Part shown: piece after piece, positions 19,381 through 34,618 of the stretch | How the letters are laid out: every line of letters starts with the position of its first letter | Position numbering within the stretch: position 1 is the first letter of the stretch | Position numbers and translations under genes: made by a program | Assembly: GCA_963726245.1 (NCBI GenBank) | Contig: CAVSBT010000017.1 | Span: forward strand, 32,001 to 96,000 | Direction: 5' to 3' | DNA: 64,000 nt | Source: an uncultured Chloroflexia bacterium | Lineage (GTDB): Bacteria; Chloroflexota; Dehalococcoidia; DSTF01; JALHUB01 | The notes under the pieces: model-generated | Database searches by the model: none | What the model was told of the DNA's origin: nothing | Seen by the model: the letters and a program-made list of their open reading frames with translations, nothing else

Positions 19381-19464
19381 CGCGCACGGAGTTGAAGCTC
19401 CGTCCTTACGCTTGATTTCCCCGCCGTCTGCAGATTTTCCCTCGCCAGGGTCTCCCCGACGCGT

Positions 19465-19500: not shown

Positions 19501-20599
19501 TTGCGCCTGGAGGGCAGCTTGGTAGCTGAGCAGTCACCCCACGTCGATCTCAGGGAGCTGGCCCGGCGATACGACGCCCGGCCCCTGGACGACCGCCCCT
19601 ACGAGCCGCTTCCCTTGGCTGACCAGGCTCTCGACCAGGACGAGGAGGCGCTGAAGGCGCGCCTGCGCCAGCTCTCCTACGAGCTGCCGGCCAGCGAGTG
19701 GCGGCCCATCGCCTGCACAGGGGAGGGCGGCGGGCCCGCCGACGCGCCGCGCCGCTTCATCGACGGCAGCGTCTTCTCCCGCAGCGTGGCCGCTCTCTCC
19801 GTCGAGGGCCGCCGGCGGCCGGCCGTGCTCGCCTGCCTGGGCGCCCTCGGCCTCCACCTGGAGGGAGGACGCCTCGTGCGGCCCCCGGAGGGCTTCCGGC
19901 TGCGCACCGTCCTCTGCCTGCTGAGCAACGGCGTGCCCCAGGAGGACCTGCGCGACGATGGCCGAGGGGCTGGCTTCGCTAGGGATTGATCTGGTCGTCT
20001 CGGAGACGGCGGAGCTGGCCGCCGACTTCGAGGTGCTGCGACGGCGCACCTGGGACCTGGCGAAGGAGCGCATGGAGGAGGCGGAGAAAGAGGTCCTCTT
20101 CGCGGCGCCGGACGTGCCCGCGGTGGTGGACGGCCTGCTGGAGCGGCGGCTGGTCACCGTCGCCTCGCAGGGCATGGCGGCGGTGGGCGTCGTGAAGCGC
20201 CAGATGCGGCGCTACCTGCCCGACTCCCACCTCAACCTGCTCTACGACCTCGCCGCGGGCCAGCGCACGCCCGCCTTCCTTCTCGAGACGGAGCACGCCA
20301 CCGTCGTGAGCTGGTACCTGCGCCTCTCGTCCGCCGACGGGCTGTCCCCCGGCTACGGCATCGTCCGGCTGGCCGTCCCCCAGGACTACCTGGAGCGGCG
20401 CTTCCCGGCGCCCGCAGAGCGCTGGAACCAGCTTTCGGCGCTCTCCGACTGGCTGCGGGCGCTGCGCTGTCGAGAGGGGAGCTACCCCCGGGCCGGCGTC
20501 TCCCTGGAACCGATCGTCCGCGTGGAGGACGAGCTGCACGCCCTGCTGCCGGACATCCGGCAGGTGGCGGCCCGGCTGCAACGGGCCCTGGGCATCTAA
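19501..20599 (+). CDS. nurA: NurA-like nuclease (RNase H fold; one indel near 19960)
   Basis: RFIDGS, VVDGLL, AVGVVK, SWYLRL, GIVRL, LEPIVRVEDEL pattern; directly upstream of a HerA ATPase. Confidence 0.65.
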
Positions 20600-20630
20600 G
20601 GTCCGCCCTACGGCGGACAGGAGGGTGGAG

Positions 20631-22533: not shown

Positions 22534-23801
22534 ATGCGCCTGCTACATACGAGCGACTGGCACCTGGGCGCCCGCCTCGGCAACCAGGACCGCCTGCCCG
22601 ACCAGCTCGAGCGGCTGGAGGAGATCTGCCGCTACCTGGACGAGAACGAGGTGGACGTGCTCCTGGTGGCGGGCGACGTCTTCGACGAGCACCGCTCGGA
22701 GGCGCTGGCCCGCATCATCGCCCGACTGGCCCGGCTGCTCAAGCCCCGCATCGAGGCCGGCATGTGGGCGGTGTTCATCGCCGGCAACCACGACCGCGAG
22801 CACGTCTTCCCTCTCATCCGGGGCCTTCAAGACCTGCTGACGGCCGAAAGCAGCCTGCCTGCCGGACAGGCGGGCCCGCGGGTCGTCTTCGCCGAGCGGC
22901 CGGCGCTGGTGCCGGTCACCGCCCGGTCGGGCGAGCAGGTGCAGCTCATGCTCCTGCCCTACCCAACGCCCACCCGCTACGAGCTGCCCGACGAACGGCT
23001 GGCCCAGCCCTGACGCCAAGCGGCAGAAGCTGGCCGATGCCCTGCGGGAGCGCATCGGCGGGCTAGCCCAGGAGGCCCGCCTGACGCCCGGCGTGCCGGT
23101 CGTCCTCTGCGGCCACTTCCTGGTGCGCGGCGTGCGCGAGGGCTTCTACCAGCTCAGCGAGCAGGAGGACGTGCCCGTCGAGCCCGCCGACCTGCCCTCG
23201 TACGCCTACATCGCCCTGGGCCACATCCACAAGCCGCAGACGGTGGGCGCGCCCCACATCCGCTACTGCGGCAGCCTGGAGCGCATGGACCGCGGCGAGG
23301 CGGACGACCGCAAGATGGTCCTGCTCGCCGACGTGGGCCGCTCGGGCCTGCGCGACGTGGTGGAGCTGCCCCTCAACGCTACCCCCTTCGCCCACGTGAC
23401 GGCAGCCAGTGAAGACGACCTGGAGCGGGCGGCGAGGGAGCTGTCGGAGCCGGAACGGACGCTGGTCTCGCTGACCCTGGACCTCTCGCGCCGACGAGCC
23501 GGTGGGGCCCCTCCTGGCCCGCGCCCGCGCCCTCTTCCCGCGGCTCTGGGCGCCGCCCGAGATCCGGCTCGCGGAGACGGCCGCTCCCCCGGCGCCGCGC
23601 GCCATCGACCGGCGCGACGTGGCGGGCACGGTGCGGTCATATCTGCAGGAGGCTCTGGCGGGCGACGCCGACCGCGACGAGCTGCTGCGGCTGGCCGAGG
23701 AGCTGCTCGCCGACCTGCCTGTCGGACAGGCGGGGCCCATAGGGGCGGTTCGCGAACCGCCCCTACCCAGCCGAGCCGAGACCGTCCGGGAGACGCCATG
23801 A
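22534..23801 (+). CDS. sbcD: Mre11/SbcD nuclease (indels)
   Basis: MRLLHTSDWHLG, LVAGDVFD, IAGNHD, LCGHF, YIALGHIHKPQ, RYCGS. Confidence 0.9.
22853..22875. repeat. In-frame palindromic repeat in sbcD (encodes LPAGQAG)
   Basis: gcctgcctgccggacaggcgggc; related copies at 23714-23734 and 18785-18805. Confidence 0.65.
23740..23766. repeat. REP palindrome inside the sbcD 3' end
   Basis: taggggcggttcgcgaaccgcccctac, identical to the intergenic copy at 29679-29705. Confidence 0.8.
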
Positions 23802-26800
23802 TCCCCGTCCGGGTGCAGGTCCGCAACTTCCTCACCTACGGCGAGGCCGACGACGGCGGCCCCATCGAGTTCGACTTCGAGGGGTCGCGGCTCTGGAGCA
23901 TCTCCGGCAACAACGGCTCCGGCAAGAGCGCCGTCTTCGACGCCATCACCTACGCCCTCTTCGGCCGCCACCGGGGCGGCGCCACCGGCGACGGCCGCCT
24001 GATCCGCAAAGGCGCCCGCCAGTGCGAGGCCACCTTCGAGTTCCAGGCCAACGGCCACCTCTACCGCGTCCGGCGCACGGTGGCCCGGCGGCACGGGAAA
24101 GCGACAGCAGGAGGCCAAGGAACGCCAGGCCGCCCGCTTCGACCCCGACAGCGGCGAGTGGGTGCCGGTGCCGGCCACCGACTCCGATGCCGCCCTGGGG
24201 CGCTGGGTCCAGGAGCTGCTGGGCCTCGGCTACGACACCTTCGTCACCTCTGTCCTCCTGCGCCAGGGAGAGAGCGACCGCTTCATCACCGCCGGCAACG
24301 CCGAGCGCTTCGACATCCTCCGGCAACTGCTGGGCCTCCAGGCCTACCAGCAGCTCGAGGAGCGCGCCCGTGCCCGCGCCCGCGAGGCCCGAGCGTCCGC
24401 CGAGGCCCTGGACCGGCACCTGGCCGCCACCCCGGCCTTCGACCCGGCCGACCTGGAAGCGGCGGAGGCCGCGCTGGCGGCGTCGGAGGCGGGCCTGCGC
24501 GACTCTCAAGCCGCCTGCACGCAGGCCCAGGCCGTCTTGAGCGACGCCCGCGCCTTCGCCGAGCTGGCCGCGCACATCGAGGAGTGCCGGCGCCGGCTGG
24601 CGGAGGTCGAGAGCCTCCTGGCCGACGCCGAAGGCATCCGAGCCCGCTACCAGGAGTGGCAGGACATCGAGGCGGCCGTCCCCGCCCTGGAGGGGGCGCT
24701 CCGGGAGCTGCGGGCGGCCGCCGTCGCCGAGGCAGAGGCGGAGGAGGCGCGACGGGCCGCCCTCGCCGTCGACCTGGGGGCGCTGGAGGAGGCGGCGCAG
24801 CTCGCGAACGCGGCGGCGGAGGACGCCGAGCGGGCCGTCGGCGTCGCTGACGAGAGCCTGAACGCCTGCCGCCAATCGCTGGCGGCGCTCCAGCCCGCCC
24901 TGCGCGGCATCGACGAGCTGGCGCAGGCCCGCGGCCAGGCCGAACGGCTGAGGGCCGACATCGATGGGCTGTCGCGCGAGCTGGAGTCGATGCCCGCCGT
25001 GCGCGAGCAGCACGAGCGGCTGTCCGCCATCGCCCGGGGATTGCCCGCCCTCGAGGCGCTGGTCGCCGCCCGCAGGGGCCTGGAAGAGGCGGAGGCCGCC
25101 GCCGCCGAGGCCGGCTCTCTGGACGGCCGGCGGCAGGAGGTGGAGCGCCTCGCCCACGAGGTGAGCGCCGCCGAGACGCGCACCCGCCAGGCGGAGCGAC
25201 GCCTTCGGGCGGCCGACCAGCAGCTGGCGCGGGCGGAGGCAGCGCTCGAGCAGGCCCGCGGGCAGCTAGCCGCCCGCCAGGAGGCCCGCGACGAGGCCGT
25301 GTGCTCCCGCTGCGGACAGCCCGTCGACCCGGAGCACATCGCGCGGGAGCTGCGGGACGCCGAGGCGGCGGTCGCTGAGGCCGGCGAGCGCGTCGCCGAA
25401 GCCCAGGCCGGCCACGAGCAGGCGCACGGCGAGGAGGAGGCGGCTCGAGAGGCGCTGGCGGCGTCGCAGGCGGCGGAGCAGGAGGCCCGTGACCGCCTGC
25501 GAGAGGCGGAGCGGCGCGCCGAGCAGGCGGCCCAGGCCCGCTCGCGCCTCGACGAAGCCGTGGCCGCGGCCTCGGACCTGCCGGAAGAGCTGCGGCGCGT
25601 CGCCGCCGGGGCACCGCCGGCGGAGGCCGAACGGGCGCTGGCCGATGCCCGCGCGCAGGCGTCGGCGCTCCCCCAGGCCACCGCCGATCTGAACCGGCTG
25701 CTGGGGCTGAAGGGGCAGGCAGAGGCCCTGGGCAAGGCCCTGCAAGAGCAGCAGGAGCGCATCGCCGAGCTGGCGGCGCGCTATCCGCCCCAGGCGGAGC
25801 AGCAGGTCCGGGCCGAAGCCGAGCGGCTGCGTACCGAGGAGCCCCGGCTCGAGGCCGCGGCCGCGGCAGGCGCGCCGGGGCTGGAAGGAGGCCCGCGACT
25901 CGGCGGAGGCGGCCCGAGGACGGCTGGAGGAAGGCCGCCTGCGCCGCCAGCAGCTCGAGGGCGACGCCGCCCGCCTCGGGCAGGGGGCTTCGGGTTTGCG
26001 CTCCCAGGCCGCCGTCCGCCTCCAGCCGGTTCGTGAGGACTGGCGCACGCGGGCGCTGGCGCTGGACGGCGCGCTCCTGACGGAGCTGCTGCGCCGCCGC
26101 GACGAGCTGGCCGGCGTCGACGAGCAGCACCAGGCGCTGGCGCGGGCCGACGAAGAGCGGCGCGAGCAGGAGGCCCGCCGTCGTGAGCTGGACCGCAGCG
26201 TGAGCCGCATCCCCCAGGAGCACCGCCTGCCCGTCGTCGAGGCGGAGCGGGCCCTGGAGGAGAGGACGGCCGACATGCAGGCCCGCCAGTCGGAGCGCGA
26301 TGAGGCCTTTCGTCGCGTCCAGGCGCTGGAGCACGCCCGCGAGCAACGACAGCGGTTCGAGGGCGCCCTGCGGGAGGCGCAGCGGCTGCGCGTCCGCTTC
26401 GGGCGGCTGGCCGAGCTACTGGGTCGCGGCGGCCTCCAGGCCCGCCTGGTGGACGAGGCCCTGGAGGGCATCACATACCTGGCCAACGAGACCCTGGCCC
26501 GCGTCTCCGGCGGGCAGCTCCGGCTTCAGTTGTCGCGGGAGAGCCGCCGGGCGGCTGGCCAGGCCGACGCCCGAAGCAACGAGGAGATCGTAATCCGTGC
26601 CCGCGACCTCGCCTCCGCCGACGAGCCGCTGGACACGCAGTTCCTCTCGGGCAGCCAGAGGTTCCGCACCTCCGTGGCCATCGCCGCCGCCATCGGCCAG
26701 TACGTGGCCGGCTCTCAGGGGAGCGCCATCCGCTCGCTGATCATCGACGAGGGCTTCGGGAGCCTGGATGCGCAGGGCAGACAGGAGATGGTCGAGGAGC

Positions 26801-26937
26801 TGCGGAACCTGTCGCAGTTCATGGACCGCATCATCGTCGTCAGCCACCAGGAGGACTTCCAGGACCGCACGCTCTTCCCGACGGGCTTCATCCTGCGCAA
26901 GGAGGGCCAGCGCAGCACCGTCGAGCGGTTCGTGTAG
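23798..26937 (+). CDS. sbcC: Rad50/SbcC SMC-like ATPase (indels)
   Basis: ATGA overlap with sbcD; Walker A GNNGSGKS, Q-loop LLRQGE, coiled coil with zinc hook CSRC, signature LSGSQ, Walker B IIDEGFGSLD, IIVVSHQ. Confidence 0.92.
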
Positions 26938-26995
26938 GGCTGGGAGCGGTGGAGTCTGTCGCCAAACTTTTCCTAACATTTTCTGTCCAAAGGGC

Positions 26996-27023
26996 TTGAC
27001 AAAGCTCACAAGGGAAGTAGAAT
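26996..27023 (+). promoter_or_regulatory. Strong sigma70-type promoter
   Basis: TTGACA-16 nt-TAGAAT in an AT-richer patch. Confidence 0.7.
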
Positions 27024-27029
27024 ACAGGC

Positions 27030-27490
27030 GAAGGATAACCAGTTGTCGATTTCGCGTTACTGGTATCCCGCATCGATTAGCCGGTCTTAGTTATCACGAA
27101 TCCTCGTTCACTTTTGTCGCTTCGAACAAAGAGTGTTGGGGGCGGCCGACAAGCGAGGAATCATGGCAAGGGCCAGGGGAACCAGAACCGCCTTGGACAG
27201 GAGATCTCTGAGGACTCCCATTCAGGAGGACTCGGCGTCCGTCGCCGCAGGCGGGGAACTGAGCCACCAGCCAATGGAGGGCGGCGTGGACGTCAGTCGG
27301 GACCGGGCCTGCGGTGTGTGACGGGCGATCGGAAAACGGGGACGGGGGTACCCCGCCGGGCGGCTGGCCAGGATTGCCAGTCCTGCCCCGCGGGCCCGGT
27401 CGATAGTCAATCGCTGGGGCAGCGCAGCAACTGACCCCTACAAGCAATAGCCCCTGACGCCTTGTGGCGATTCAAGGGCCGCCCCCTCAC
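27030..27490 (+). ncRNA. Candidate large structured non-coding RNA of unknown class
   Basis: Follows the promoter; several stems (27033-27068, 27096-27165, 27236-27327, 27356-27399 and two near 27416-27478) and a perfect 10-bp long-range pairing 27138-27147/27477-27486; G-U pairs favour the + strand. Confidence 0.5.
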
Positions 27491-27528
27491 TAGTGGCGCG
27501 CACACCCTTCCCTCTGAAGTGTGCGTCC

Positions 27529-27604
27529 TGGCGCGCCCGGAGGGATTCGAACCCCCGACCCTCGGTTCCGAAGACCGATGCTCTATCCGCTGAGCTACGA
27601 GCGC
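27529..27604 (-). tRNA. tRNA-Arg (anticodon UCG)
   Basis: GCGCTCG acceptor stem, anticodon arm TCGGT-CT TCG GA-ACCGA, GGTTCGAATCC T-loop, encoded CCA. Confidence 0.95.
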
Positions 27605-27701
27605 GCCCCATCGCTGCGCAGACGGGCGTCTCGCTGCGCCCGCCCATCTCGCGCCAGTCTATCATAGCCCCTCGAACGCCTACAACGAGCCGGGCGCCTC
27701 A

Positions 27702-27746
27702 TTGACATATGAGATGCTTTAGCGCATACTTTGCAGGTAAAGCATC
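27702..27746 (+). promoter_or_regulatory. Sigma70 promoter overlapped by a 9-bp inverted repeat (candidate operator)
   Basis: TTGACA-17 nt-CATACT; GATGCTTTA (27713-27721) / TAAAGCATC (27738-27746). Confidence 0.6.
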
Positions 27747-27769
27747 GCACATCTGAGGGGAGGGGAACC

Positions 27770-27880
27770 ATGGCTATCATCGACGCAATGGACGTACGAC
27801 TGGAGTACATCGCCTACCTGGAAGGGGACGACCTGGAGGACGTCGCCTACGAGGAGGCTCTATTCTTTTACGAGTGGTGA
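27770..27880 (+). CDS. Small acidic protein, 36 aa (not in the ORF track)
   Basis: Own promoter, GGGAGGGG RBS, MAIIDAMDVRLEYIAYLEGDDLEDVAYEEALFFYEW*, followed by a hairpin. Confidence 0.6.
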   Translation: MAIIDAMDVRLEYIAYLEGDDLEDVAYEEALFFYEW

Positions 27881-28015
27881 GCCGGCAGACCCCGGCCGGG
27901 GTCGCTTTGAGCACCGGTTCATCGCGCTCACAGAACGAGTCTGTGAGTAATGGGGTCACAACTGTAGCCGGCGGGCAGCCGCCGGCAGAGACATGAAACG
28001 CAAGGGAGGGAGTCC

Positions 28016-28327
28016 ATGCGATTCTTAGTAAAGGTCTCCATACCGACAGAGGCGGGCAACAAGGCAGTACGAGACGGCACTCTAGCCGAGAAGCTGGGCC
28101 GCATCCTCAACGAATTGAAGCCGGAAGCCGCCTACTTTGCCGAGGTTGACGGCGAGAGGTGCGGCTTCATTTTCGTTGACGTGCCGGATGTCTCGAAGAT
28201 CCCCTTCGTCGCGGAACCGTTTTTCCTGGCGCTGAACGCGAGGGTCGAGTTCCACCCGGCGATGATGCCGGACGACCTGCGAAAGGCGGGGCCCGACATG
28301 GAGAAGGCCGCTAAGACGTACGGCTAG
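28016..28327 (+). CDS. Conserved hypothetical protein (small alpha/beta, DUF3303/GYD-like)
   Basis: GGAGG RBS; KPEAAYF...GERCGFIFVD...AEPFFLALNARVEFHPAM. Confidence 0.7.
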   Translation: MRFLVKVSIPTEAGNKAVRDGTLAEKLGRILNELKPEAAYFAEVDGERCGFIFVDVPDVSKIPFVAEPFFLALNARVEFHPAMMPDDLRKAGPDMEKAAKTYG

Positions 28328-29546: not shown

Positions 29547-29677
29547 GCGAGCGCGCTCAGCTTAGCACAGCTCGCGAAAGGCGACTAGCCGTGCAGGACT
29601 GCCCGCATCGACGCTGACGGCCTCGAGCAGGCGTGCGATTCTAACGGAAGCAGGGCGATTTCGGGGGAATTGCCCCC

Positions 29678-29705
29678 GTAGGGGCGGTTCGCGAACCGCC
29701 CCTAC
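29678..29705. repeat. GTAG-type REP palindrome
   Basis: Perfect palindrome gtaggggcggttcgcgaaccgcccctac. Confidence 0.8.
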
Positions 29706-31964: not shown

Positions 31965-32042
31965 CCAGACGTAAGGACGAAGCTTTAGCTTCGTCCGAGA
32001 GGCAGCCAAAGGAGGCGGACGGAGCTGAAGCTCCGTCCTTAC
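31965..32042 (+). repeat. 78-bp REP doublet (REPIN/BIME-like), copy 1
   Basis: Two inverted GTAAGGACGGAGCTTNAGCTCCGTCC units; about 71/78 identical to the reverse complement of 34541-34618. Confidence 0.85.
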
Positions 32043-32167
32043 GAGGTGGTCGCGCGTGCTATAAGTGCGCCGGCCACGGCGGGCTGCGCCCTTACGAACC
32101 GGGCGCGAAGTCGCCCTCGCGAATCTGTCGGGGCCTCAAGCCTCCGACCTACGAGACCGACCTTCGG

Positions 32168-34540: not shown

Positions 34541-34618
34541 GTAAGGACGGAGCTTCAGCTCCGTCCGTCTCCTTCGGCTGTCTTGCGGACGGAGCTAAAG
34601 CTCCGTCCTTACGTCTGG
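34541..34618 (-). repeat. 78-bp REP doublet, copy 2 (inverted relative to copy 1)
   Basis: gtaaggacggagcttcagctccgtcc...ggacggagctaaagctccgtccttacgtctgg. Confidence 0.85.

Follow-up and report, generated by a model that had tools for sequence, protein, structure and literature searches.

A candidate regulatory RNA family associated with a winged-helix regulator and csrA in uncultured Dehalococcoidia

The locus and its conserved element

The stretch of DNA analysed here, referred to as the window, comprises 64,000 nucleotides (nt) of contig CAVSBT010000017.1 (positions 32,001 to 96,000, forward strand) in assembly GCA_963726245.1, from an uncultured Chloroflexia bacterium of the GTDB lineage Bacteria; Chloroflexota; Dehalococcoidia; DSTF01; JALHUB01. 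The window carries a conserved non-coding + strand element with its own promoter, flanked by an SbcC-like gene, which ends upstream of it, and by a tRNA-Arg gene convergent with it (Table 1). On balance, we favour the view that this element specifies a new, family-restricted regulatory small RNA (sRNA) of a circuit formed by a winged-helix regulator and CsrA.

The initial annotation of the locus had pointed to a near-consensus promoter, and the promoter scan confirmed it. The + strand site TTGACA-16-TAGAAT at 26996-27023 matches 11 of 12 consensus positions and is one of two promoter-like sites in the 1.7 kb scanned (26500-28200), where 0.2 would be expected. Transcription would start at about 27029-27031. 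A GGAAGTA stretch ahead of the -10 box is kept, together with the promoter, in homologous copies. The same annotation saw no convincing gene downstream, in agreement with our finding that no Pfam family matches any open reading frame (ORF) in the RNA region.

The 4227 models of Rfam 15 were run on the whole window at gathering scores and on 26850-27750 at E<=10. Two tRNAs alone pass in the former search, and the latter returned the tRNA plus chance-level matches of at most 19.8 bits, and nothing else. The RNA thus matches no Rfam family, in line with the initial suspicion of a new RNA. In the homologous loci L002, L013 and L011, the Rfam models detected RNase P RNA only, outside the element.

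Relatives of the element were found both by BLAST and with a covariance model. Out of 17 family genomes besides this one, 10 gave a BLAST match, and a single weak match came from another family. Identity within the family is 69-79% over ~26979-27412; the matches reach 27420 at most and have unalignable flanks. The conserved stretch extends from ~26979 to ~27412-27430 and takes in the promoter, a leader of ~145 nt and a core of ~240 nt (27176-27412). Of the large, ~460-nt non-coding RNA originally proposed, there remains a non-coding candidate with homologues and a shorter conserved unit, nothing being conserved past ~27430. Our covariance model of the core, R1 (243 positions, 59 pairs), detects 19 copies in 11 of the 18 family genomes, this one counted, at one to three per genome. 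It detected none in 75 genomes of the order's other four families, in a sample of 149 other genomes of the class or in a sample of 150 other genomes of the phylum; since Infernal was run with stricter filters in the larger searches, and the class and the phylum were sampled, these results mean that the RNA was not found in the genomes searched. A specific motif pattern recovered 16 further copies in 15 metagenome contigs and none in viral contigs, and BLAST against plasmids gave no match. The collection holds 31 distinct core sequences, 29 of them full length. A loose pattern scan of genome contigs yielded at least 119 matches, six of which match the query by BLAST, and no new lineage. The tallies of the BLAST and R1 searches, like those of the regulator and FliW searches described below (59 genomes), take in one unpublished genome, G045, on which none of the statements made here hinges. 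The DNA sequencing runs that contain this stretch are labelled as sediment, peat, wetland and soil metagenomes. Literature searches on CsrA or small RNAs in Chloroflexi and on noncoding RNA in Dehalococcoidia gave nothing on this RNA among the matches listed, which does not prove it unpublished.

Table 1. Features of the RNA locus, in window coordinates
Feature	Position	Strand	Evidence
Sigma-70-type promoter (TTGACA, 16 nt, TAGAAT)	26996..27023	+	Promoter scan; conserved in homologous copies
Leader; 5' hairpin 27033-27068 and decayed antisense promoter relic ~27095-27140	27030..27175	+	Homology to other copies and to csrA locus L159
Core domain D1; holds invariant palindromic motif GAGATCTCT	27176..27219	+	Model R1, alignments A4 and A5
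Purine-rich linker, Shine-Dalgarno-like (TCA-GGA-GGA)	27220..27233	+	Invariant columns in A4
Core domain D2, long hairpin with variable tip	27234..27294	+	97.9% of cells paired
Core domain D3; closing stem, long helix, variable junction with two small hairpins	27301..27401	+	Alignment, single-sequence folds
3' tail, weakly conserved, in some lineages only; no terminator-like site	27402..27430	+	Alignments, terminator scan
3' arm of 10-bp complement; window-specific, not part of the family	27477..27486	+	Unalignable in homologues
tRNA-Arg (anticodon TCG), convergent with the RNA	27529..27604	-	ARAGORN; Rfam 68.3 bits

Predicted fold of the core

The core is predicted to fold into three domains, D1 to D3, with a purine-rich linker between the first two that resembles a Shine-Dalgarno site and not its complement. 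Two alignments bear on this model: A5 is fitted to the model and leans towards it, and A4 is a plain MAFFT alignment. Overall, the proposed pairs are kept at ~96-97%, compared with 35-51% in shifted controls; within A5, 95.9% of 1686 cells are paired, against 37-51% with the partners slid. Helices 1-5 of D1 are 91-100% paired and show little variation. The 14-bp closing stem of D3 (27301-27314 with 27388-27401) is 96.6% paired, and single-sequence folds give the same long D3 helix in all 29 copies. This helix is kept although its 3' strand differs between lineages, two of which have lost or replaced the tip hairpins.

The covariation score of A5 reaches 0.165, against 0.124 +/- 0.004 in shuffles, a value attained by none of 500 shuffles. 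In A4, D2 and the D3 closing stem have 97.2% of their cells paired, and their covariation score is equalled or exceeded by 2 of 500 shuffles. The clear compensatory cases are few and lie in D2: pair 78-129, with 17 UA and 12 CG, and pair 71-135, with 28 CG and a lone UA, that of the window. A search for covarying columns all against all returned 469 pairs swamped by relatedness, and was not used. G-U combinations account for 224 of the 1686 paired cells in A5. Because these would become A-C mismatches on the opposite strand, the folded strand is the + strand, the one read by the promoter. Taken together, these sequence comparisons make a conserved RNA fold likely.

Several pairings proposed in the initial annotation fared differently once homologues were aligned. 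The long hairpin at 27236-27327 joins the 5' side of D2 to a repeat-like part of D3, and competes with both D2 and the D3 stem. Its pairing is compatible with 97.9% of cells, but no pair in it changes on both sides, and none of the 500 shuffles scores lower. The D2 and D3 helices are slightly better supported, and the competing pairing may represent a second conformation or merely reflect the internal repeat. The perfect long-range pairing of 27138-27147 with 27477-27486 does exist as an exact 10-nt complement, but its 3' arm is outside the conserved sequence, as are the two 3' hairpins, which we do not retain. The minimum-energy fold of the region contains the 5' hairpin at 27033-27068 and a long 3' domain; the hairpin, however, is common only to the window and the sister genome. 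Across loci no conserved 5' hairpin was found: hairpins occur just after the promoter in several of them, differ from one another and are not consistently predicted.

The regulator-csrA cassette

The most frequent neighbour of the RNA is a gene for a winged-helix protein of ~104 amino acids, which at most loci starts ~25 nt upstream of the RNA promoter on the opposite strand. Its Pfam matches are HTH_24 and MarR-like, and its sole NCBIfam match, to ArsR/SmtB, is weak and below the cut-off. The gene lies divergently upstream of 13 of the 19 genome copies and beside the RNA in 14 of 15 metagenome loci. Across the order, the regulator was found in 50 of 59 genomes.

The window copy lacks this arrangement. 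Here the regulator gene is not adjacent, and lies on another contig next to csrA. Three genome copies, those of the window, G001 and G007, are away from the regulator, and in exactly these genomes the regulator faces csrA (Pfam CsrA, 3.5e-19), with the same promoter and a homologous leader. In the genome of the window, the head-to-head pair (G000 contig C38:47772-48710; loci L159/L198) has the promoter TTGACA-16-TAGAAT upstream of csrA and a leader homologous to that of the RNA. The pair extends well beyond the family: csrA is the divergent neighbour of the regulator in 15 of 17 loci from three other families (loci L230-L245), and 11 of those 15 have a like promoter with GAAGTA before the -10 box. 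Since a regulator-csrA pair with such a promoter is the rule across the order, the RNA uses a copy of what was ancestrally the promoter cassette of csrA. With its filters off, R1 gave two weak matches (21.7 and 18 bits) in 22 regulator-csrA loci, both unrelated G+C-rich hairpins on inspection.

The leader records the same origin. At loci that bear the regulator, it carries TTGACT-17-AACAAT or TTGACT-17-AAGAAT on the opposite strand, facing the RNA promoter; the conserved leader motifs AGTCAAG and ATTGTTCA, 17 nt apart, are the complement of this promoter-like site of the regulator. The site is altered where the regulator gene is not adjacent. It is deleted in the G007 copy and partly kept in the G001 copy; in the window, where the scan found no - strand promoter-like site in the leader, it has decayed by point changes. 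The multibranch domain once assigned to 27096-27165 falls in this stretch. Because the homologous sequence is the promoter-like site of the neighbouring regulator gene, we read it as the relic of a DNA promoter and not as a conserved RNA fold.

Two further observations concern these leaders and promoters. In one genus (L013 1343-2640, also L006, L007 and L183) a ~60-nt module of the leader is duplicated in tandem. Many genomes of the family have a conserved motif ending in GCCGATAA upstream of csrA, at ~60 nt in L198-L200 and 120-150 nt in L164-L175. We take GCCGATAA to resemble a sigma-28 -10 box; as this genome, 83% complete, yielded no flagellin, we make no sigma-28 claim for it.

Possible roles of the RNA and competing explanations

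The arrangement that we favour would work as follows. The promoter at 26996-27023 would give a transcript of ~380-400 nt, made of a variable leader and the conserved ~240-nt core. Promoter and leader are a copy of the order-wide cassette that lies between the regulator gene and csrA and faces csrA. In the bacterial family that carries the RNA, the core takes the place of csrA in duplicated regulator cassettes or occurs as an extra promoter-leader-core copy elsewhere in the genome, the window representing the latter case. The RNA would be made under the same control as csrA, with which it is probably co-regulated, and would act in trans as a regulatory RNA of the circuit.

Such a layout has precedents. 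In the OxyR/OxyS, GcvA/GcvB and SgrR/SgrS pairs, an sRNA is divergent from the gene for its transcription factor. Our RNA likewise stands head to head with a regulator, with adjacent promoters, in the genome and metagenome loci counted above. Unlike OxyS, GcvB and SgrS, it is larger and more elaborately folded, lacks a visible intrinsic terminator and has no known Hfq-type features or targets; moreover, the promoter-like site of the regulator lies inside the RNA leader, facing the RNA promoter, and the window copy has no adjacent regulator.

How the RNA would act is a more tentative matter. The mechanism that we prefer, while holding it to be unlikely in itself, is a decoy that would bind CsrA through its GGA motifs. 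Of the 18 family genomes, 16 gave a csrA match, and the CsrA Pfam model matched all four genomes tested, including both in which it had been missed earlier. FliW was found in none of the 18 family genomes and in none of the 59 genomes of the order. A review (PMC7652899) describes sRNA antagonists of CsrA in Gammaproteobacteria, which are devoid of fliW. In our alignment A4, the linker and D1 contain invariant GGA motifs; the linker GGA at alignment column 58 occurs in all 29 copies, and its accessibility is predicted to be intermediate; the motifs that look accessible (columns 1, 29, 58 and 184) have predicted unpaired probabilities of ~0.4-0.9. A 4-bp stem that would present the linker GGA is not kept across copies. 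It is conceivable, with similar reserve, that a decoy arose in a lineage having CsrA, with neither FliW nor flagellin detectable, through capture of the promoter and regulator cassette of csrA, which would place regulator and decoy under one control. The core also holds several perfect palindromes, of 10, 10 and 8 nt, and the invariant palindromes GAGATCTC, GGGGTACCCC and CTGGCCAG might in addition mediate RNA-RNA pairing between copies.

The comparison with CsrB/CsrC and RsmX/Y/Z, the CsrA-sequestering RNAs of Gammaproteobacteria, brings out likenesses and differences. CsrB has roughly 18-22 GGA motifs. The present RNA resembles these systems in being a stand-alone, promoter-driven, structured RNA of CsrB-like size; in having a host with CsrA, here without detectable FliW; in carrying GGA motifs in a Shine-Dalgarno-like setting within its most conserved unpaired stretch; and in its tie to csrA through a shared promoter and regulator context. 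It differs in having no sequence or model match to them, in not being enriched for GGA, with ~8 conserved positions, and in lying beside a winged-helix regulator, not under a two-component system of the GacA/UvrY type. It also belongs to a different phylum, and its binding of CsrA is hypothetical.

Several observations weigh against this interpretation. Control of the RNA by the regulator is deduced from gene position alone, and csrA is present without any copy of the RNA in 7 of the 18 family genomes. GGA motifs average 9.3 per core, compared with 8.6 in dinucleotide-preserving shuffles (n=29); per-copy p values are 0.2-0.9, the window copy alone standing out with 13 GGA (p 0.02). Of the eight positions at which GGA is kept in at least 60% of copies, only about four are predicted to be accessible. 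The terminator scan found no terminator-like site on the + strand in 26500-28200, and no U-run follows D3 in the homologues. As for expression, three of four RNA runs cover only the tRNA or nothing, a gap that is evidence for neither side. In a wetland metatranscriptome, a relative is represented by a 594-nt contig that spans most of the core (27165-27257 and 27338-27401). Its depth of 7.4 equals that of a piece of sbcC, DNA carry-over is possible, and the contig is no proof of transcription.

The fold, too, has its weak points. The folding energy of 27026-27495 gives z = -2.67 on the + strand and -2.59 on the - strand, and that of the conserved core -1.67 (+) and -1.05 (-), with 10 of 200 shuffles folding as well; it is not clearly beyond composition. 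The view that the region is almost entirely paired therefore does not hold as a sign of structure, since with z values of -1.7 to -2.7 it largely reflects a G+C content of ~69%. The covariation check recommended for the candidate produced a score above shuffles but few two-sided changes: pairs with such changes number 10 in A5, against 7.3 in shuffles, 34 of 500 of which reach that number, and 3 in A4, against 2.6. The covariation evidence is thin and rests on few events. Because the homologues are close kin of low diversity, statistical support for the fold is limited.

Among the alternatives, a cis-acting leader or untranslated-region element for a downstream gene, such as a riboswitch-like sensor or an mRNA-stabilising structure, survives best, and we judge it to be rather improbable. 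It draws on the loci of one genus, in which a gene for a universal stress protein (Pfam Usp, 5.3e-33) follows a promoter-bearing copy at a distance of ~30 nt. There the Usp gene is sandwiched, since a promoter-less second core copy follows its stop codon (L013 1343-2640; L006, L007, L183); the three genome copies without a promoter all lie just after such a gene, itself preceded by a promoter-bearing copy. In another locus type, a SHOCT-domain gene follows ~165 nt downstream of the RNA, but this gene has its own upstream TATAAT-like box. The loci, moreover, do not share a downstream gene; the window copy, like several others, is met by convergent genes or a convergent tRNA, and no known riboswitch model matches.

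A conserved DNA element without RNA function, whether a duplicated regulatory cassette or the scar of an element moving between stable-RNA genes, has in our estimate only a small chance of being the correct explanation. The conserved motifs of the leader are indeed best read as the DNA promoter of the regulator gene, and the palindromes of the core would fit such an element. The copies away from the regulator also seem to sit beside stable-RNA genes: that of the window adjoins a tRNA gene, that of the sister genome G001 a tRNA-Arg-like 3' fragment, and that of G007 has an RNase P RNA gene as its divergent neighbour (L011 2023-2425). Against this, substitutions keep the pairing through G-U on one strand only, the promoter aims into the core in every promoter-bearing copy, and copies are syntenic within a genus. 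The searches of viral contigs and plasmids were negative, as stated above, and no direct repeats that would mark an inserted island were found around the window copy. As a separate observation, tRNA 3'-half fragments consisting of the T arm and acceptor end, uncalled by ARAGORN, lie by RNA copies at L013 2690-2735, at the same place in L006 and L007, and at L002 1463-1497.

A resemblance to large non-coding RNAs found next to tRNA genes, in particular GOLLD, had been raised for the locus. Like GOLLD, ROOL, OLE, HEARO and the raiA motif, the RNA is conserved, structured and non-coding, and some of its copies adjoin tRNA genes. It is distinguished from them by the lack of any Rfam match, by a core of ~240 nt, by its restriction to a single family and by having no association with phages or mobile elements, and the likeness to GOLLD accordingly does not hold.

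It is very unlikely that the element is a divergent form of a housekeeping RNA. The hallmarks of RNase P RNA, tmRNA (transfer-messenger RNA) and SRP (signal recognition particle) RNA had been found wanting in the initial annotation, rightly so, as all three RNAs are located elsewhere in the genome: contigs C24 (317.6 bits) and C6 (307.6 bits) carry RNase P RNA, C15 carries tmRNA (88.7 bits), and C25 carries SRP RNA (68.3 bits). This leaves 6S RNA as the sole open case, for which the Rfam model has no match anywhere in this 83%-complete genome. The silence of that model means little, since it matched only 5 of 14 control genomes and failed in 9; RF00013 has no match in the region either. 6S RNA is rod-like, about 180-200 nt long, with a central bubble. 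Our RNA may similarly be an abundant regulator with its own strong promoter, but it is twice the usual 6S length, has three domains in place of a rod with a central bubble, occurs in up to three copies per genome and is missing from 7 of the 18 family genomes. Independently of this question, the two RNase P RNA genes (C24:3331-3695 and C6:20851-21214) are both full length, and the contamination of the genome bin is estimated at 6.3%; the bin may mix two strains.

Equally small is the probability that the locus encodes a small protein, either the 52-aa ORF at 27163-27321, which had been proposed as a tightly repressed mRNA, or another short ORF. The window does offer a GAGGA ahead of the ATG at 27163 and open frames of 62-117 aa on both strands. 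Against this, the ATG occurs in the window copy only; among the other 18 aligned copies, 3 have GTG at that position and 15 lack a start codon there. The TCCTC at 27101, supposed to sequester the GAGGA ribosome-binding site (RBS), is likewise confined to the window. The alignments contain frame-breaking indels of 1, 2, 8 and 17 nt within the conserved core, the frame that most often runs uninterrupted across it does so in 5 of 29 copies, and in many copies no frame is open beyond ~50 codons. With such indels and neither a conserved start codon nor a conserved open frame, coding is excluded, and the repressed-mRNA proposal falls with it.

Least credible of all is the suggested tie of a large non-coding RNA to the adjacent sbcCD and nurA-herA end-resection genes: besides the adjacency in the window, SbcC lies near the RNA in only 1 of 31 other homologous loci searched, that of the sister genome of the same genus (1.26 kb upstream), and the usual neighbour is the winged-helix regulator.

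Some features of the surrounding sequence may be recorded here. The SbcC-like gene (23093-26937) is spread over three frames, with an N-terminal ATPase domain in 23093-24850, no Pfam match in 24162-26036 and an SbcC Walker B domain in 25996-26937, which suggests frameshifts, assembly errors or a broken gene. Palindromic repeats resembling repetitive extragenic palindromes (REP) form two families, one of 29 nt (19382-19410, 32015-32043, 34543-34571 and 34585-34613) and one of 31 nt (23736-23766 and 29675-29705). Most copies are 93-100% identical to one another, and one copy lies just before the SbcC ATPase domain. The second promoter-like site of the scan, TTGACA-17-CATACT at 27702-27730, lies downstream of the tRNA and is followed by the RBS-like GGGGAGGGG and an ATG at 27772. 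ARAGORN calls a 95-nt tRNA-Cys at 20519-20613 (- strand), where the Rfam tRNA model is silent at the gathering score; this may be an unusual tRNA or a false call.

To conclude, our analysis describes a conserved RNA candidate whose promoter and leader point to the regulator-csrA cassette of its order. To our knowledge, very few regulatory RNAs are known in Chloroflexota, and the carriers of the present one are uncultured bacteria of wetland, peat and sediment. If the decoy mechanism is true, this would be the first RNA antagonist of CsrA outside Proteobacteria. Even if that idea fails, the work provides a new RNA family with a working covariance model, and it defines a conserved regulator-csrA cassette with face-to-face promoter-like sites. 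For an order in which FliW was not found, the RNA and its cassette offer a testable lead on the control of CsrA.

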